From positions 204,056-268,055 of the forward strand of contig CAZIMC010000001.1 in NCBI GenBank assembly GCA_964540475.1: a stretch of 64,000 nt of DNA, given 5' to 3'. The notes beneath the pieces are model-generated. The model made no database searches, was not told where the DNA came from, and was given only the letters and a program-made list of their open reading frames with translations. Below are positions 3,507 through 51,512 of the stretch, piece after piece. The number at the start of each line of letters is the position of its first letter. Within the stretch, counting starts at the first letter, position 1. The stretch is from an uncultured Gammaproteobacteria bacterium (lineage in GTDB: Bacteria > Patescibacteriota > Microgenomatia > UBA8517). The position numbers and the translations under genes are program-made.

Positions 3507-4613
3507 GTGATGCTTGAAAAACTTCTAACCCGTGTTTCCTCGTCACTTGAACAAATTATAAGTAGTGCTGGCACCAGGGATTTTTACAAAACTATCGTAG
3601 TGGAAATCGTAGGTCTTACCCGTTCGGAAGGTGGCGGAATATATCTACTTGAAGAGGGCACACTCATGCTTGGATACTCGTCACAATCAAATTATTTTTC
3701 AAAGAAAATATCTAAATTCCACCCCTATTACACTGCTTTCGGCGACAGTCATCATCATGAACTTCTAAAAAAAGACCATAAATTATATATTTGGCCACTT
3801 TATGTGGGTAATAAGGATAAGGTCGGTTTGTTGGTGATGATTAGAAAAAGGAATTACCCCTTTAGATTTCAAGAGCTTTTTGCTACATATTGTCAGATAA
3901 TTGCAGTGATCATTAAAAAATTTGAGTTTAAAGAGCGTGTTGCACGGCTACTTGTGCAAAAGAACCATTTTATTTCCCTCACTGCCCACGAGATGCGCAC
4001 GCCCTTAACTTCAATTTTTGGTTACTTGCAGCTTTTATGTATATGTAGCGATGAAACTATATTGCCAAAGCATAAAAACTGGCTTAATGTAGCTCTTATT
4101 GAATCCCACAAGCTTAATAACATTGTAAACGAGCTTCTGTTGTTTAACAGGATTACCGACCTACGCTTAGTTTTTACTTGGGAGCGGGTGTCTTTGGGTA
4201 GACTCCTGAAAGAGATAAAGGAAAAACTATTATTTTTATATCCCAATGAAAACTTAAAATTTTTGGTGGATTTAAACTTTCCCGAGAATAAAAAGGTCAT
4301 AGTTGACGTTGATAAAATAGAAACGGCAATTGTAAACATGATTGATAAAATACTTAAAAAGTCAGACGCTGATACGGAAACCACCATTCTGACAAGCGGT
4401 ACTGGTGAGCACCTAGAGGTAATAATCAAGCAAGATAAAAAAATCGTGGGTATTGGAAGGGGTGCTAAAAGCCTCGCAGAAATTAATAACGATTGGGATT
4501 TAAGTATTTATATTGCAACCAAGATCCTGAATGCACATGGTGGGAAACTGAGAGTTGATAACTCAAAAGCATTTAAAATGAGAATAATATTTCCAAAAGT
4601 TAAATTTCACTAA
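3507..4613 (+). CDS. Cytoplasmic sensor histidine kinase: GAF-like N-domain, HisKA, HATPase
   Basis: H-box LTAHEMRTPLTSIFGYLQLL; C-terminal G2-like ATKILNAHGGKLRV; no TM segments seen. Confidence 0.65.
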   Translation: MMLEKLLTRVSSSLEQIISSAGTRDFYKTIVVEIVGLTRSEGGGIYLLEEGTLMLGYSSQSNYFSKKISKFHPYYTAFGDSHHHELLKKDHKLYIWPLYVGNKDKVGLLVMIRKRNYPFRFQELFATYCQIIAVIIKKFEFKERVARLLVQKNHFISLTAHEMRTPLTSIFGYLQLLCICSDETILPKHKNWLNVALIESHKLNNIVNELLLFNRITDLRLVFTWERVSLGRLLKEIKEKLLFLYPNENLKFLVDLNFPENKKVIVDVDKIETAIVNMIDKILKKSDADTETTILTSGTGEHLEVIIKQDKKIVGIGRGAKSLAEINNDWDLSIYIATKILNAHGGKLRVDNSKAFKMRIIFPKVKFH

Positions 4614-5281
4614 TCTTTTAAGATATATCCGAAACCACGAACGGAGTGTATCAGTTTATCTTCATAACCATTGTCGACCTTCTTTCTTAAATACCCAACA
4701 TATACATCAACGACCCTGGTTTCTATCTCGTTTGAATACATCCACACTCGGTTTAGAATCATCTCGCGTGTTAAAACTCTGTTTCGGTTACTCATTAAGT
4801 ATTGTAAAAGCTTAAATTCCTGGGGAGTTAATTCAATAAGCTTTTTGCCTCGCTTTACTTCGTGTGTTTGAAGATCTACCGTTAGGTCCTTGGCTTTTAA
4901 TTTTTGCTCTTGGGAAGAGCGTTTCCTAAGAAGTGCTTTAACTCGTGCTACAAGCTCAGTTGCATGGAATGGTTTTGTGACGTAATCGTCTGCCCCTAAT
5001 CCCAAACCCTTGACAATATCATCTACTGTGTCTTTTGCTGTCAAAATCAGAATGGGTATATCTGGGTAGTTACTCCTTATTTCCTGGCAAACGCTCTCTC
5101 CTGATACATCCGGTAAACCCAAGTCAAGTATTACCAGGTCGGGTTCCGTCCCTTCGAGAATTTCCAGAGCCTTAGTCCCGGTTGAGGCTGATTTTGCTGA
5201 ATAACCGTTCTCGAGCAGTAGATCTACTAAGAATTTTTGTAATTGTTTGTCATCCTCAACTATTAAGATGTTTTCCAGCAT
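4610..5281 (-). CDS. OmpR/PhoB-family response regulator (REC plus winged helix)
   Basis: Receiver with DLVILDLGLPD; C-terminal winged helix LTPQEFKLLQYLMSNRNRVLTREMILNRVW...RGFGY. Confidence 0.9.
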   Translation of the reverse strand: MLENILIVEDDKQLQKFLVDLLLENGYSAKSASTGTKALEILEGTEPDLVILDLGLPDVSGESVCQEIRSNYPDIPILILTAKDTVDDIVKGLGLGADDYVTKPFHATELVARVKALLRKRSSQEQKLKAKDLTVDLQTHEVKRGKKLIELTPQEFKLLQYLMSNRNRVLTREMILNRVWMYSNEIETRVVDVYVGYLRKKVDNGYEDKLIHSVRGFGYILKD

Positions 5282-5404
5282 GTGTTACTTTCCGGTAATA
5301 CAGATTACACTAGCGCACATAAACCTGCAATCAATTGAGCACCGTTCTAAATTGCTTGACTCCTAGCATTTTCCTATTGTACTGTAAGAGCTCTGTAAGA
5401 AACT

Positions 5405-5959
5405 ATGCAGAAAACGCAAAGAGCAGCCTCGTTTGAAGGATTTCCAAAACATAAAACTTTCGATACCGGACCGTTCAGGTTCAGTGTCCGTGTGGGCATG
5501 AATCAAACAGTCATGAGAATGACTTGCTATACGGACAAAATCTACACCTCATTTTACAGTTCAACATACAAGAATTTGTTAGCACACCTTCCTGGTATAT
5601 TTAATTGTCAATGTTTTAACCGCGACAACAAAAATTTTGCTGAAGAATCTAAAAATACTGAAATTGCCCACCTTTTTGAGCATATATTTATTCAGTACTT
5701 TTGCGAGATAAAGGCTAATTACTGTAATTGTGCTATCGAGTGCGAGGGCTATACGGAATGGGATTGGGTGGAGAACCCTCCGGGAACGTTCACCATAATC
5801 CTAAATATCGGAAAGAAAGACCTAAAATATATTGCGAAAGCATTAGAAAGGAGTATTGCCCTGTTTAATAAAATTATAGCCGAAAACGAGGATGAAGGTT
5901 TTTTCCCTCTCCCCCAGCCGGTCGTTGTCCCGGTCCCGATTTATGTACCATCAAGATAA
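5405..5959 (+). CDS. Hypothetical Cys-rich protein; start uncertain, internal Met possible
   Basis: 184-aa ORF with several CxC/CxxC pairs (CQCF, CNCAIECEGY); no family recognised. Confidence 0.3.
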   Translation: MQKTQRAASFEGFPKHKTFDTGPFRFSVRVGMNQTVMRMTCYTDKIYTSFYSSTYKNLLAHLPGIFNCQCFNRDNKNFAEESKNTEIAHLFEHIFIQYFCEIKANYCNCAIECEGYTEWDWVENPPGTFTIILNIGKKDLKYIAKALERSIALFNKIIAENEDEGFFPLPQPVVVPVPIYVPSR

Positions 5960-6138
5960 GATTAATTAGTTGGAGAGAAGTATGGTGTTGTTGCAGTTTG
6001 CAATACGCTCCCGGCGCCACTTTCTAGTTCTTGAATTATGGCATTTCTTCTACGGATAATTAAATCTCTTTGAGTATCCTTTAATGCATCACTGTCGGGA
6101 ACGCCTGTTTCTTCTACCATTCTGGCAGCTAGAGCATA

Positions 6139-6648
6139 TCATAGTAGACTCAGTGACAGGGTGTCTGGTTTTACCGTTTCATTTGATACATCTCCAACTG
6201 TAATAGTTTTAGATTCTGGATCGAAATCCTCATACCCCGCAATTCCATCTAAAATCTCAGGAGCAGCATAGTGCAGATTTGCTGAGCTTACAGTTTGAAA
6301 TTTCCAGTTAGGAGGCAAAATCTGAATCAAATCTAAAGATTTTCCCGCTCCCCCCTTTGTGTTGATGTCCAACCTATTGACGTCGTAAATTACTACTACG
6401 GGTGTGTGGCCATTCTCCATGTCAATTTTAACGACTTCTGCGGGTTTTTTTACCCCGCCTGAAATATGAAGTTCCCATTTACCACCTATTAAATCATGGC
6501 TATACTCCGGGGGAACCGAGCTGTCTATTGAGTAGCCGTTTTCAGCTGTGAGAGGTGGAGTTTTGTCTCGTTTGCCTACCAATGCTTTTATTTTTTGTAA
6601 AAAACCACCCGATGACTCCGACATATTATATAAATATAGCACACACAA
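6139..6648 (-). CDS. Hypothetical protein
   Basis: 169-aa ORF. The likely start MSESSGGFLQ shares the MSES start with the next gene. No recognisable motif. Confidence 0.35.
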   Translation of the reverse strand: MCVLYLYNMSESSGGFLQKIKALVGKRDKTPPLTAENGYSIDSSVPPEYSHDLIGGKWELHISGGVKKPAEVVKIDMENGHTPVVVIYDVNRLDINTKGGAGKSLDLIQILPPNWKFQTVSSANLHYAAPEILDGIAGYEDFDPESKTITVGDVSNETVKPDTLSLSLL

Positions 6649-6746
6649 TTTAATGCACCTTTTCTGCCACAGAGCTTATTGAACTAAAAGTCTCTTCTGT
6701 CATTTAAATCATTATATACAAAGCTCACCGGCCAAGGGGAATATTT

Positions 6747-7502
6747 TTAAGCGGCTGGCAAGGCCGTCATAGCTTTGTTTCTTCCACCAAGGGAATTAGT
6801 CAGACTCGAAATTCCATTGATATAAAAAACAGGAACGCTTTTTGCTTTCAATTCATCACTTCCGGTGTAGCATGATTCTAATAAAATTGCGGAATAAAGT
6901 GAACTGTCGTCATATTTTTTCAAAAGCTCATCAACCAAAACGGTGTTGCCTGCTCTTTGCAGTTGTACGCCTTCACTGTTTCTCGGAATATCGCTGTATT
7001 GCTCTCCGATACTGCGGGAACCATCTCCACCATGTCCTTGCACTATTACCACTCCAGTGGCCTGAGAGTTCTTAGTTGCATTTTGGAATTTTTGCCGGTC
7101 TTCGTTTGTGGGTAAAACCTTAATAAGCTCTCGGGCTAGATATTCGTAGGGACGTTCACCGTTCTTGGTAAGTGTATTTAGGTTTTTTGTTGTTTCGGCC
7201 ATCAATTGAAGCATGGATTCATGGGTACGGCTGGATCTTATAGTCCTTTGTTCCGGAGTAAGTGACTCCTGAGGCGAGAGGGTAAGAAATTTTATATTAA
7301 GAACTGATTGGGGAAGCTCGATATCGTAATTGGCAAGATAATTTTTAACATCAGCTGTTACAGGAATATCAACTTCTATTCCCCAGGCAATATTTTCACC
7401 TTCCCCAAAAGTAACCATTCTCCCAGACAACTCTTTTGCGAAGTTGTCAGGAACCTCAGGTGATATGGGAATAACCTGCAATTCGATTGGAGACTCACTC
7501 AT
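6747..7502 (-). CDS. Hypothetical protein with metacaspase/caspase-like His...Cys signature
   Basis: 251 aa. GVVIVQGHGGDG and, about 55 aa later, LLESCYTGS resemble the SGHGG and DSCHSG catalytic-dyad motifs of peptidase C14. Confidence 0.4.
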   Translation of the reverse strand: MSESPIELQVIPISPEVPDNFAKELSGRMVTFGEGENIAWGIEVDIPVTADVKNYLANYDIELPQSVLNIKFLTLSPQESLTPEQRTIRSSRTHESMLQLMAETTKNLNTLTKNGERPYEYLARELIKVLPTNEDRQKFQNATKNSQATGVVIVQGHGGDGSRSIGEQYSDIPRNSEGVQLQRAGNTVLVDELLKKYDDSSLYSAILLESCYTGSDELKAKSVPVFYINGISSLTNSLGGRNKAMTALPAA

Positions 7503-7567
7503 AAATAAATAGTAACATACGCTTGTCTAACTAACTTTTCTCTAAGATAAGAGCTTGCAAACATTTA

Positions 7568-8260
7568 TTGAAATGCTATTATCAATGTAAAGCTATGGCA
7601 GACAGAAACCAAGACACGATCAAGCAGATGCTTGGTGGACTTAATTCAGACTCGCGTATTACTTCAAATCGGCAAGGTAATCCCCTAGAACAAGCAATAG
7701 CCGCAGGATCCAATTCGCTTACGGAGCACGAGCTTTACAAGTTGTTTTATGAGTCGGGTGTAAAAAACGAAGATTTTGACAACCTTGATCCTAAATCGAA
7801 GGAAGCGGTAGCCAATGGATTATTTAGATTGTGGAAAATTGATAGATTTGGTAAAGAAGTTGAAGATAAAGATCAGCGAAATATACCTAACGTCCAAGAA
7901 CTTAAGGATGTTTATGAGCAAAGGGTTAGGGAGAAGAGTTACGCTGCACAAGGTTGGCTTAGAGAATCCACAAGAAATTTGGTACAACTTGCTGGGATGG
8001 TGGAGGAGCCGAAGGAGGAAAGGTCAAGAATAGCCGATAGAGTATACGGTAATGCGGAATCTTATGTTAAGTTTTTGAAACGATCGGGGGAGAATTATGA
8101 GGATGCCGCTAACAGACGGCTTGTGGCCGATACGCTTTATGAGATACGAGATTATTTAAAAAAAAGAGAAGGTGACATGGCGAATATACAAGGTGAATTA
8201 AACAAATTGGGTAATAATGAATTGGACTATTTTGTGAATCGGTCTAGCAGTGGGGTATGA
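7568..8260 (+). CDS. Hypothetical, predicted helical protein
   Basis: 230-aa ORF (start may be the internal MADRNQ); diverges from the caspase-like gene across a shared promoter region. Confidence 0.35.
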   Translation: MKCYYQCKAMADRNQDTIKQMLGGLNSDSRITSNRQGNPLEQAIAAGSNSLTEHELYKLFYESGVKNEDFDNLDPKSKEAVANGLFRLWKIDRFGKEVEDKDQRNIPNVQELKDVYEQRVREKSYAAQGWLRESTRNLVQLAGMVEEPKEERSRIADRVYGNAESYVKFLKRSGENYEDAANRRLVADTLYEIRDYLKKREGDMANIQGELNKLGNNELDYFVNRSSSGV

Positions 8261-8339: not shown

Positions 8340-8402
8340 TTAGGTAGTTTAAGTACGTTTTGATTTGGTGGGAGAAAAACCCGCCATTTTTTTTAGAAAA
8401 AT

Positions 8403-9707
8403 ATGCAGACACCAAGAACAGAATTTGCACAAGCTTTGAAAGCTGTCGCGACAGAGCGAGGGCTAGATGCTAACGTGATCCTTGAAACCATAAAGCAGGC
8501 AATTATTGCTGCCTACAGAAGAGATGCAAGAGAAAGAGGCGAAGAGACCGACGACTTGGAGTTTGATGTAGAGCTTAATCCCAGTAATGGCGAGGCGCGG
8601 GTTTTTGCATGGCCGGCTCGTGTTGTTGAAACTCCGGAAGCTGTGGCAGAAGAAGGCGTAGAGGCTGATCTTCCTGAAGAGCCGGAAGAAGAAAAGAAAG
8701 CAAGACTTGCACAAAAACAGGACGTAACCCCTCCGGGATTTGGAAGAATTGCAGCGCAAACCGCAAAGCAGGTTATCCATCAAAAGATCCGCGAGGCAGA
8801 GAAAGATGCTATTTTGGGAGAATTTTCGGAGAGAGTTGGTAACCTGGTTTCGGGAATGATTCTGCGGTTTGATGGGCCCAATGTACGCATTGATATTGGA
8901 AGAACGGAAGGCATAATGCCCGCTGAGGAACGTATTCCAACTGAGAGGCTTAACCCCAACCAGAGGTTAACCTTCCTTCTAAAAGATATCAAAGAAACAC
9001 CAAGGGGCAGGGAAATTATTCTTTCAAGAGCCGAACCCTCATTTGTTGAAAAACTGTTTGCAAGAGAGGTTCCTGAAATTGCATCAGGGAGTGTGATAGT
9101 TAAAAAAGTTGCAAGGGAGGCCGGTGTTAGAACGAAAATCGTTGTCTCTTCTGGTCAGCCGGGTGTTGATCCGGTGGGATCATGTGTAGGTCAAAAAGGT
9201 GTTCGTGTTCAGGCAGTTACAAATGAATTGGGAGGAGAGCGCGTAGATATTATTCCCTGGAGCGAGGATATGGTTGAGCTTATTAAGGCCTCCCTTTCCC
9301 CCGCTGAGAACTTGAGTGTTACTTTGGATGAGGAAAACAAAACAGCTATTGTGTATGCACCGGAAGATCAACTTTCACTCGTAATCGGCAAGGATGGACA
9401 AAACGTTAGGCTGGCTGCAAAAATAACCGGTTGGAAGATCGAAGCCATTGGAACACCGGTTGAAAAAGAAGAACAAGCAGGACAGGTAGAAGAGGTAGAG
9501 CAAGTAGATGGCGAAAAAGAGCCAGAAACCGGAGATGTAAATGCAGAAAAGAATGAAAAAGTAGAACCTGAGAAAGAGATGGAAAAGGTTGAGAAAAAGG
9601 AAAAAACGACCGAGGATACACAAGCTGATCAGCAAGAGGAACATCAGGTAAATTCGAAAGCTTTAAGTGAGGCAGACGCTAGCGGCTCCCAAGAAGACGA
9701 ACAGTAA
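8403..9707 (+). CDS. nusA: Transcription termination/antitermination factor NusA with a long acidic Lys/Glu tail
   Basis: S1 and KH-domain region conserved (GIMPAEERIPTERLNPNQR...SGQPGVDPVGSCVGQKGVRVQAV). Confidence 0.92.
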   Translation: MQTPRTEFAQALKAVATERGLDANVILETIKQAIIAAYRRDARERGEETDDLEFDVELNPSNGEARVFAWPARVVETPEAVAEEGVEADLPEEPEEEKKARLAQKQDVTPPGFGRIAAQTAKQVIHQKIREAEKDAILGEFSERVGNLVSGMILRFDGPNVRIDIGRTEGIMPAEERIPTERLNPNQRLTFLLKDIKETPRGREIILSRAEPSFVEKLFAREVPEIASGSVIVKKVAREAGVRTKIVVSSGQPGVDPVGSCVGQKGVRVQAVTNELGGERVDIIPWSEDMVELIKASLSPAENLSVTLDEENKTAIVYAPEDQLSLVIGKDGQNVRLAAKITGWKIEAIGTPVEKEEQAGQVEEVEQVDGEKEPETGDVNAEKNEKVEPEKEMEKVEKKEKTTEDTQADQQEEHQVNSKALSEADASGSQEDEQ

Positions 9708-9739
9708 AATGAAAAGCCTATTGGGTTTAAATTTAAATT

Positions 9740-11125
9740 ATGGAAACTTTACGCGCACCAATTGTAGCAGTTTTAGGCCACGTTGATCATGGTAAGACCT
9801 CGCTTCTTGATGCAGTAAGAAAAACCAAAGTAGCTGCAGGTGAAGCGGGAGGGATTACGCAAAGTATTGGAGCCTCGGTGGTTGAAACTTCGGACAAGAA
9901 AAAAATAACATTTATCGATACTCCAGGTCACGCAGCCTTTGCCAAAATGCGCGCTAGAGGCGTGGGGTTGGCAGATATTGTAATACTTGTAGTTGCAGCC
10001 AACGATGGGCCAAAACCACAAACATTGGAGAGCTTAAATGCCATTCGTGAAACTAATACCCCTTTTATTGTGGCTATAACAAAAATGGATTTGCCTTCGG
10101 CAAACCCGGAGGCAGTTCATGGTCAACTCGAGAAAGAAGGGGTTCTCTTCGAGGGGCGTGGAGGACAAACCCCCTCAGTGCTAGTTTCTTCCAAAACCGG
10201 TGAGGGTATAGAGGAGCTATTGCAGATGATAAGTTTACTGGCAGAAGTAAACGGTGTGAAGGCAGATGAGGATGCGGACCTTGAAGCTGTTGTTATTGAA
10301 ACTCAAAAAGGAAAGGGTGGTCCACAAGTGTCGTTGGTGGTTAGAAACGGGAAGGTGTCAGTTGGTGACCTGATTTCAACAGATTCAGTTTCAGCAAAGG
10401 TTCGTGGAATTTTGAATGAGCGAGGCACACCAGTTAAGCAAATTTTACCTGGCGAGCCGGGACTCATATTGGGATTTTCGGAGCTACCCGTGGTTGGCGC
10501 TTTAGTTAAAAAAGGAGAAGCCACCTATCACAAATCGCATGACGTTGTTGCTAAAAGTCCTCCTACCAAAGCCGATGTTACGGTTTACTTAAAAGCTGAA
10601 AATGCCGGGTCCCTGGAAGCATTGGAAGCCTCCATTCCCGAAGGGGTTGCTGTGGTTGGTTCGTCTGTGGGCGCTGTAACGGAAACTGATGTTTTTATGG
10701 CTAAGGCGGCTGGAGCGTGGATATTTGTATTTCAAGCAAACGTGCCCTCTGGTGTTTCAAAGCTAGCCGAAACCGAAGGGGTGAATATTGAAAGCTATGA
10801 AATTATTTATGAACTTCTGCAGCGACTTGATGAGCTTATTAAAAAGGGGCAGGTGCAAGTTTTGGGAAAAGCACAAATCTTGGAAACTTTCCCTTTTAAT
10901 AACAAGAAGGTTGCGGGTTGTAAGGTCGTTGAAGGAAGGATCAATAAGATAGACAAGCTTTTGCTTATGCGCGAAGATAAAGAACTTGGTGGAACAAAAA
11001 TCGCATCAATCAGAAAACAAAAACAGGAAGTTAGTGAAGTTCGTGCAGGTGAAGAGTTTGGGGTGATTCTTGAACCACAGCTTGATTTTAAAGCTGGCGA
11101 TATGATACTATCGGTCGCAAAGTAA
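9740..11125 (+). CDS. infB: Translation initiation factor IF-2, minimal form (G domain onward)
   Basis: [24 protein letters not shown]1 motif, DTPGH, NKMD; only 461 aa, with no N-terminal extension. Confidence 0.92.
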   Translation: METLRAPIVAVLGHVDHGKTSLLDAVRKTKVAAGEAGGITQSIGASVVETSDKKKITFIDTPGHAAFAKMRARGVGLADIVILVVAANDGPKPQTLESLNAIRETNTPFIVAITKMDLPSANPEAVHGQLEKEGVLFEGRGGQTPSVLVSSKTGEGIEELLQMISLLAEVNGVKADEDADLEAVVIETQKGKGGPQVSLVVRNGKVSVGDLISTDSVSAKVRGILNERGTPVKQILPGEPGLILGFSELPVVGALVKKGEATYHKSHDVVAKSPPTKADVTVYLKAENAGSLEALEASIPEGVAVVGSSVGAVTETDVFMAKAAGAWIFVFQANVPSGVSKLAETEGVNIESYEIIYELLQRLDELIKKGQVQVLGKAQILETFPFNNKKVAGCKVVEGRINKIDKLLLMREDKELGGTKIASIRKQKQEVSEVRAGEEFGVILEPQLDFKAGDMILSVAK

Positions 11126-50532: not shown

Positions 50533-51027
50533 ATGCAATATCAAGGAGGAGGCAACAAATACGCAATGAATACAATCAAGGAATTTGAGGAAACAGTTGT
50601 GCAGATTAACAGAATCTCTAAAAAGACTAAAGGTGGAAATCAAATAAGATTTTCTGCTTTAGTAGTTGTGGGTGACAAAAAAGGTAAAGTGGGTGTTGGT
50701 CTGTCGAAGGCGGGGGATGTGAGAAATGCGATCAGAAAAGCAATATCATTTGCCAAGCGTCGAATGATTGAAGTGCCTTTGGTGGGTTCCACAATTCCCC
50801 ATTCAACGAGAGAGAAATTCTCTGCAGCCAAAGTTCTTTTGAAACCAGCTCCTCCTGGCTCAGGTATCATAGCCGGGGGACCGATGAGAGTAGTGCTCGA
50901 GGCTGCTGGAGTAAAAGATGCTGTTGGCAAGATCTTGGGTACTAGTAACAAAATCTCGAATGTATATGCTACCATCAAGGCACTGGAGACAATCGCCGAA
51001 ATAGAAAGACTCAAAAAGGAAGCTTAA
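50533..51027 (+). CDS. rpsE: 30S ribosomal protein S5
   Basis: RFSALVVVGDKKGKVGVGLSKAGDVRNAIRKA. Confidence 0.92.
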   Translation: MQYQGGGNKYAMNTIKEFEETVVQINRISKKTKGGNQIRFSALVVVGDKKGKVGVGLSKAGDVRNAIRKAISFAKRRMIEVPLVGSTIPHSTREKFSAAKVLLKPAPPGSGIIAGGPMRVVLEAAGVKDAVGKILGTSNKISNVYATIKALETIAEIERLKKEA

Positions 51028-51032
51028 TAAAT

Positions 51033-51512
51033 ATGACTAGAACATTACCCAAAATAGTACAAAGATCTAAAAAAAGAACGGGCCGTGGCTACGGAAGCGG
51101 GAAAGGTGGCCATACTGTTGGTAAAGGACAAAAAGGTCAAAAGACACGCGGTAGAATAAGTGTAATTTTTGAGGGAGTAAAGGTAAGGAAAAGCCTGATC
51201 AAAAGACTTCCGTTTAAACGAGGTAAGGGGAAATTTGGACCCAGCGGAAAACCAGTTATTGTAAAGCTGGCATCTCTTGAGATCCTTCCTAAAGGAGCCA
51301 AGGTGGATACCGAAACACTAATTAAAAACGGAATTGTTAATAAGGAAGATATTGATAGAGTAGGTGTAAAAGTGTTAGGCAATAGTGAGATTACTAAAGC
51401 CCTAACAATTTTAGTACCTATATCGAGATCTGCCGCCAGGAGAGTAGAGACTGCAGGTGGGAAGGTTGAAGTGTCTAATAAAAAGCTAGGCAATAATAAA
51501 GACCTGGGTTAA
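51033..51512 (+). CDS. rplO: 50S ribosomal protein L15 (no rpmD/L30 gene before it)
   Basis: GRGYGSGKGGHTVGKGQKGQKTR. Confidence 0.9.
   Translation: MTRTLPKIVQRSKKRTGRGYGSGKGGHTVGKGQKGQKTRGRISVIFEGVKVRKSLIKRLPFKRGKGKFGPSGKPVIVKLASLEILPKGAKVDTETLIKNGIVNKEDIDRVGVKVLGNSEITKALTILVPISRSAARRVETAGGKVEVSNKKLGNNKDLG

Follow-up and report, generated by a model that had tools for sequence, protein, structure and literature searches.

What is the small soluble protein that carries metacaspase-like His and Cys motifs and has no annotated family, and do the genes that surround it belong with it? Both questions are raised by a stretch of 64,000 nucleotides (contig CAZIMC010000001.1, assembly GCA_964540475.1), which is called here the window. 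A block of four genes, A to D (Table 1), lies there between two-component genes and nusA. An earlier note had placed the 251-residue product of gene C in peptidase family C14 (metacaspases and caspase-like CHAT proteins) and had proposed the whole block as a module for regulated proteolysis or defence. We consider it probable that C represents a new family of small clan-CD-like cysteine hydrolases, soluble, stand-alone and observed only in uncultured bacteria with small genomes. The dyad motif is real. The "module" is an accident of adjacency in a variable slot, and the locus reveals no new defence system.

The C family and its conserved residues

C contains the segments VVIVQGHGGDG, which includes His157, and LLESCYTGS, which includes Cys211, the sole cysteine of the protein. 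The two residues are 54 positions apart, in keeping with the spacing of ~55 proposed when the segments were first read as the His-Gly and (D/E)SC(H/Y)(S/T)G motifs of a catalytic dyad. How far does this pair extend beyond the window? A search of 5.8 billion proteins (clustered at 90% identity) retrieves 12 relatives of C with 35-57% identity, and a profile search of 1.84 billion representatives at 50% identity enlarges the family to 84 clusters, of which 69 score E <= 1e-10. Two of the loci come from 0.2-um-filtered groundwater of Hainich. Residue counts given below refer to an alignment of 61 full-length family members, the most distant of which share 17% identity with the window protein.

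Only three columns of this alignment are invariant, those of His157, Glu167 and Cys211 (61/61 each). Since the His and the Cys are both present in every member, the motif lies far beyond chance, and the pair behaves as the dyad that had been suggested. Judged by conservation, the His/Glu/Cys pattern is that of an active site. The glycines flanking the His are largely kept or replaced by small residues: position 156 is Gly in 44 members and Ala in 15 (59/61), and position 158 is Gly in 48 and Ser in 12 (60/61). The surroundings of the Cys vary, with RACNSK, GSCYSG, HNCHSS, NGCNHD and VSCNTG in place of the ESCYTG of the window, and the Cys alone is conserved; this variation includes Glu209, the acidic residue two positions before Cys211. 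Close to invariance are Gly166 (60/61) and Glu79 (58/61, with Asp in 2 more). Position 86 is basic in 56/61 members (Arg in 51, Lys in 5), and Pro64, Pro77 and Asn186 are each kept in at least 54, Pro77 in exactly 54.

The family is not uniform in size. A subfamily of ~310-350 residues (P0035, P0040-P0048, P0053, P0060-P0064 and P0067) has an N-terminal extension of ~60-100 residues and an insertion. P0067, with 492 residues, also has a C-terminal extension of ~180 residues, on which there is no Pfam match.

Predicted fold and profile evidence

AlphaFold2 predicts C as a single compact domain. The mean predicted local distance difference test (pLDDT) score rises from 79 with 12 aligned sequences to 94.6 with 61, and the predicted template modeling (pTM) score from 0.81 to 0.91. 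The first half of the model comprises strands 26-32 and 39-47, helix 50-57, strand 69-74 and a helical insertion (77-144). In the second half, strand 150-155 leads to His157 and is followed by short beta segments (164-166, 174 and 180), helix 190-197, strand 203-209 leading to Cys211, strand 225-230, helix 234-238 and a last strand, 243-247.

The caspase fold is built on a six-stranded sheet with strand order 2-1-3-4-5-6, the last strand being antiparallel, and on helices a1-a5 (McLuskey and Mottram, PMC4357240). Its elements follow each other along the chain as b1-a1-b2-a2-b3-(small three-stranded sheet)-a3-b4-b5-...-b6, the catalytic dyad of clan CD sits at the C-terminal ends of b3 and b4, and the minimal caspase/haemoglobinase core consists of b1-b4 and a1-a3 (PMC4357240). 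Hydrophobic residues before the His and the Cys, together with a Gly beside the His, are hallmarks of the clan (PMC4357240; PMC12445089). In the linear order of its elements, the model of C agrees with this description piece by piece. His157 is predicted to follow strand 150-155 (VVIVQG) and Cys211 strand 203-209 (YSAILLE), two consecutive strands, as expected for clan CD. Past b5, where a caspase continues at much greater length, the model has one short helix followed by b6.

Fold searches lead in the same direction, without a significant match: neither model of C finds an entry in the PDB at E <= 0.001 with Foldseek. The best matches of the first model are caspase-11, -4, -7 and -6, Dronc, butelase 1, the glycosylphosphatidylinositol (GPI) transamidase and the cysteine protease domain (CPD) of MARTX. 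The top ten of the deeper model include caspase-11, subunit K of the GPI transamidase (three entries), caspase-7 (four entries) and caspase-4, and all ten belong to clan CD, with E-values of 0.07-0.3, Foldseek probabilities up to 0.63, template modeling (TM) scores of ~0.2 and root-mean-square deviations (rmsd) of ~10 A. Because of these low TM scores and high deviations, the likeness between the predicted structure and clan CD is local and not global. The monopoly of one clan in the top ranks is nevertheless meaningful, since the clan had been named beforehand from the sequence, although the fold is not proven thereby. The caspase-like fold expected in the earlier note is thus where the predictions point, if weakly, and they do not point to a different known fold.

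Do sequence profiles place C closer to any one family of the clan? Searches of PDB sequences with phmmer and hmmsearch, using C, the 61-sequence profile, A, D and a profile of A with P0095, give no relevant match, and the 61-sequence profile finds no clan CD chain at E <= 10. When the 61 members are scanned singly against Pfam (E <= 10, the best 25 of 30 families listed), Peptidase_C11 has the best E-value (0.0022) and Peptidase_C13 is matched by 2 members; three unrelated families are also matched twice. The C11 match (PF03415) is confined to one member, P0035, where residues 189-282 align with profile positions 59-148 and cover its His224 and Cys279, and it reaches 18 bits against a cut-off of 25.8. 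In NCBIfam, likewise scanned singly, just two families are matched repeatedly, each by 2 members: "caspase, EACC1-associated type" (best E 0.007) and clostripain (TIGR02806; E 0.013). A PorU-related model is matched once. The threshold for C11 is not reached.

For family C14 the result is negative. Peptidase_C14 (PF00656) is not matched by C, nor by any of the 61 members among the matches listed at E <= 10, and the same holds for CHAT. A direct comparison by hhalign of the C family with metacaspase p20 sequences taken from the PDB (Yca1 4F6O, Mca1 7QP0 and TbMCA2 4AFR) aligns 72 columns with GHG on GHG and SCYTG on SCHSG, at E 0.021 and a probability of 2%. This register makes sense, but 45 unrelated window proteins that served as controls give E-values as low as 0.037; the score lies within the control range and the alignment is not counted as evidence. 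A likeness of the C family to clan CD at the level of the clan is probable, whereas membership of C14, as the earlier note had it, or of any other existing family is not supported.

The locus and its neighbours

Table 1. Features of the locus (positions in the window unless another contig is named; L012 and L013 are other contigs).
Feature	Positions	Strand	Description
Gene A	5405-5959	+	184 aa, 7 Cys; partner of the divergent response regulator, unlinked to C
Gene B	6139-6648	-	169 aa from TTG; 161 aa from internal ATG 6624 (6139-6624); ORFan downstream of C
Gene C	6747-7502	-	251 aa, soluble; unannotated family, invariant His/Glu/Cys site; probable clan-CD-like cysteine hydrolase
Gene D	7568-8260	+	230 aa from TTG; 221 aa from ATG 7595; charged, divergent from C
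Fifth open reading frame	5962-6120	-	52 aa, 18 bp downstream of B; codon usage like that of a gene, may be a fifth gene
His157 codon	7032-7034	-	GHG motif after strand 150-155; proposed general base
Glu167 codon	7002-7004	-	IGEQ motif in the small beta section after His157; putative role in the S1 pocket or in orienting His
Cys211 codon	6870-6872	-	SCYTG motif after strand 203-209; proposed nucleophile
Conserved loop P77-Q78-E79...R86-x-I88	7245-7268	-	after strand 69-74; E79 candidate third residue of clan CD type, N-terminal to His
Divergent pair of A and regulator	window 4610-5959; L012 7233-8528; L013 59-1354		on three contigs

The setting of the block is as first described, flanked by genes for a HisKA kinase and an OmpR-type response regulator at one end and for NusA and IF2 at the other, and its four genes are indeed without a recognisable family. 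Scans of Pfam, NCBIfam and PADLOC bring no match of any weight for B, C or D, none of the four proteins reaches a curated threshold, PADLOC gives no meaningful match for any of them, and only A has a match below the threshold (see below). None of the four proteins has a hydrophobic segment, and C lacks a transmembrane or signal-like stretch. With a codon model trained on the conserved genes of the window, A to D and a fifth, 52-codon open reading frame (ORF) all score best in their own reading frame; the fifth (0.29 in frame versus -0.58 and -0.73) is as gene-like as its neighbours and has no Pfam match. The GC content of these five reading frames is that of their surroundings.

Transcription signals can be proposed for several of the genes. 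D more likely starts at ATG 7595 than at TTG because a promoter-like site (7555-7582) overlaps the TTG start. B has a possible -10 box of its own in the 122-nt gap to C, and a terminator-like hairpin (8366-8386) lies between D and nusA. Promoter-like sites in the region number 9 against 7.3 +/- 2.4 expected, which is not above chance. Of the MSES start that B and C were reported to share, the part concerning C stands; B begins in this way only when read from its internal ATG. A duplicated 5' end is rejected as its source, as codons and upstream DNA differ between the two genes. Many members of the C family (P0009, P0010, P0012, P0016, P0020, P0022, P0042, P0043 and P0045) begin with M-[S/P]-E, as does the unrelated B, and such starts may reflect a preference of start context or of N-terminal processing in these genomes. 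B as a relative of C was likewise discarded (no blastp match, hhalign probability 0.1%).

Does C keep company with any particular gene? Fifteen C-family loci (the window, L001-L004, L006, L008-L011 and L014-L018) were compared by all-against-all searches of their ORFs. No neighbour of the C gene is conserved among them, and in the other 14 neither A nor B nor D has a homolog beside C. The neighbours are housekeeping genes, for ribosome recycling factor (RRF), an M50 peptidase, GreA, peptide deformylase, DnaB, EF-P, a RecF-like ATPase and glycosidases. This comparison, with a Pfam search of the immediate neighbours, dismisses a conserved operon. Contig L012 shares synteny with the window (DnaK, DnaJ, the regulator, A, ..., NusA, IF2, a 284-aa protein and S15), and in its slot between A and nusA (8597-10475) two unrelated, unannotated genes without a Pfam match (245 aa, +; 361 aa, -) replace B, C and D. 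On account of L012 and of the 15 loci, we read the slot between A and nusA as variable, a hotspot for lineage-specific genes, with A tied to the regulator and C standing as a unit by itself. Gene B, gene D and the 52-aa ORF most likely fill the slot as lineage-specific genes and are not partners of C. A mobile element or horizontal transfer was also considered and rejected: the composition is normal, no repeats flank the block, and searches of viral contigs, phage genomes and plasmids bring no match.

Gene A, the Cys-rich protein already remarked on, has one homolog with 46% identity, which in L012 and L013 again diverges from an OmpR-type regulator. The conserved motifs of A are CxC...AHLFEHIFIQYFC...CxC, and the protein may work with the two-component system as a metal- or redox-linked partner. 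Its only Pfam or NCBIfam match, to the N-domain of cyanophycin synthetase (PF18921; E 1e-3, 19 bits against a cut-off of 27), is below the threshold and was not confirmed against PDB sequences, and this homology was set aside. The adjacent histidine kinase (3507-4613, +) matches HisKA alone in the family scan, with no HATPase_c at E <= 1e-3 and no evident sensor or transmembrane region; its ATP-binding domain may be degenerate. In BLASTP comparisons a short ORF (2006-2353, -) falls together with the window's response regulator (4610-5281) and that of L012, and may encode a second, stand-alone receiver-domain protein.

Some traits of the host genome can be read in the window. L15 starts 5 bp after S5 (50533-51512), with no L30 gene between them, IF2 has 461 aa and RpoB 1124 aa. 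RpoB, EF-G, NusA and IF2 are each singletons at 90% identity among ~15 billion proteins. Members of the candidate phyla radiation (CPR, or Patescibacteria) typically lack L30 and have small genomes. The missing L30 and the short IF2 and RpoB suggest a reduced genome of this CPR/Patescibacteria-like kind.

Competing readings, mechanism and known clan CD systems

Is a clan-CD-like hydrolase the best account of C? The site could instead lie on an alpha/beta fold that does not derive from caspases, new or convergent, and serve as a metal site, as the centre of a small-molecule amidohydrolase or transferase, or as another His-Glu-Cys triad. Three observations weigh in favour of this and against a clan CD relationship: a model with a pLDDT of 94.6 has no significant match in the PDB and a TM score of only ~0.2 to the best one, no profile links the C family to the clan, and the invariant Glu, 10 residues after the His, has no obvious clan CD counterpart. 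The third residue of clan CD lies N-terminal to the His. Yet the near-matches in structure and hidden Markov model (HMM) searches are consistently from clan CD, no other fold recurs, and the order of secondary structure elements agrees with that of caspases. A papain-like or clan CE arrangement, in which the Cys starts a helix, is contradicted by the predicted position of Cys211 after a strand, and the alpha/beta model differs from the beta-barrel of sortases (clan CL). We therefore regard a fold unrelated to caspases as unlikely. A metal site would not by itself speak against catalysis, as the His and Cys of the Asp-His-Cys triad of TcdA/B also bind Zn and the two properties are not exclusive (PMC12445089).

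Two further readings come from the earlier note. True membership of C14, as a metacaspase, an orthocaspase or a CHAT-type relative, is favoured by the resemblance of the motifs to the metacaspase SGHG...DSCHSG, by a spacing of 54 close to that of Yca1, by the presence of both motifs in the one alignment with the Yca1, Mca1 and TbMCA2 p20 sequences and by the two members that weakly match a caspase model of NCBIfam. That alignment scores no better than the controls, and neither Peptidase_C14 nor CHAT appears among the matches listed for the 61 members; C11 and C13 are matched equally weakly. The residue two before the Cys is not kept acidic (RAC, GSC, HNC, NGC and others), and C ends 40 residues past its Cys, without a p10-like region containing helices a4 and a5. 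Membership of C14 is very improbable. The other reading joins A, B, C and D in one module, in which C would be the protease effector of regulated proteolysis or of anti-phage defence. The genes are adjacent, C and D diverge over a 92-bp gap that holds the promoter-like site for D, C, B and the 52-aa ORF are co-oriented, and the block is missing from the syntenic relative, as accessory islands often are. Against this, no gene co-occurs with C in the loci compared, A goes with the response regulator, B is found only as itself among 5.8 billion proteins, and D has no relative in the metagenome contigs scanned for close relatives; nor is there a PADLOC match, a compositional anomaly, a flanking repeat or a phage, plasmid or viral match. 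Such a module is scarcely credible.

How might a clan-CD-like C work? Its fold would be a stripped-down and divergent form of the caspase/haemoglobinase fold. By analogy with the clan, C is most likely an endopeptidase, in which the thiolate of Cys211 would attack the peptide bond with His157 as general base, a scheme that draws on the model and on what is known of clan CD. The invariant Glu167 and the near-invariant Glu79 may orient the His, form an acidic S1 pocket, or both. A Glu167 that lines such a pocket would favour Arg or Lys at P1, as in metacaspases, clostripain and gingipains (P1 specificities of clan CD proteases are summarised in PMC12445089). Glu79, placed after the strand that would correspond to b1/b2, could be the N-terminal third residue, as in gingipain, legumain and TcdB. 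More speculatively, the basic residue 86 in the loop PQESLxxxxRxI might be an internal cleavage site with a built-in P1 residue, or else a pseudo-substrate.

A bolder version of this proposal is that C founds an unrecognised cysteine-hydrolase family, either a new family of clan CD or a new fold, apparently restricted to uncultured small-genome bacteria (CPR-like, groundwater), with an invariant His-Glu-Cys catalytic centre and with R86 as a pseudo-substrate or autoprocessing switch. Taken as a whole it is tentative, possible but rather doubtful; if it holds, these proteins would be among the smallest self-contained enzymes of caspase type. If C does belong to the clan, a minimal single-domain enzyme of ~250 residues from much-reduced genomes would help to show which features of the caspase fold catalysis requires. 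Such an enzyme would also open a way to study proteolysis in CPR-like episymbionts, most of whose proteins lack annotation. Clan CD now comprises C11, C13, C14, C25, C50, C80, C84 and C123, with YabG proposed, and would gain one family more if the assignment of C holds.

Among the families of the clan, the C14B metacaspases and orthocaspases (Yca1 4F6O, TbMCA2 4AFP) share several motifs with C. In both, the His precedes the Cys by ~55 residues and each follows a hydrophobic strand, the motifs are G-H-G and S-C-x-[ST]-G with a helix of the type G-x-[VI]-x-x-x-E-L between them, and the proteins are soluble and cytoplasmic. C differs from C14B in several respects: it shows no significant sequence or profile match to that family, its Cys is not preceded by a conserved Asp, a p10-like C-terminal half and the extra strands b7 and b8 are missing, and its invariant Glu167 and its PQE...R loop are without a counterpart in C14. 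The C14A caspases (caspase-11, -7 and -4) are the best Foldseek matches, with the same order of elements including the small beta section after the His. In contrast to them, C lacks the Arg/Gln/Arg motif of the S1 pocket (QACRG is absent) and the inter-subunit linker, and its C-terminal part is much shorter.

C11 (clostripain; PmC11, 3UWS) is bacterial, like C, and supplies the best sub-threshold HMM match, that of PF03415 to P0035. C11 enzymes are mostly secreted. They differ from C in their larger size, nine-stranded sheet and C-terminal helical domain, and C-family scores stay below the C11 cut-offs. C11 enzymes cleave after Arg and process themselves (PMC4850288; PMC12445089). The C13 peptidases (legumain, butelase and the GPI transamidase subunit PIGK/GPI8) have a six-stranded caspase-like core, are active as monomers and stand among the top Foldseek matches of C (8imx_K, 8imy_K, 7w72_K and 6dhi). 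C13 enzymes are eukaryotic and secretory, with specificity for Asn or Asp and an Asn-His-Cys triad. The matches to them are distant, with E-values of 0.09-0.5 and TM scores of 0.16-0.2, in line with the two weak Pfam matches.

Another parallel is YabG, a sporulation protease lately proposed for clan CD, which has a His-Cys dyad with a Gly by the His, Arg specificity and autoprocessing, and no similarity to other families of the clan (PMC12445089). The general Pfam scan, which involved no direct comparison with YabG, has no YabG family match for the 61 members among the matches listed. Although YabG is restricted to spore formers, it provides a precedent for what is proposed for C, a small bacterial His-Cys protease.

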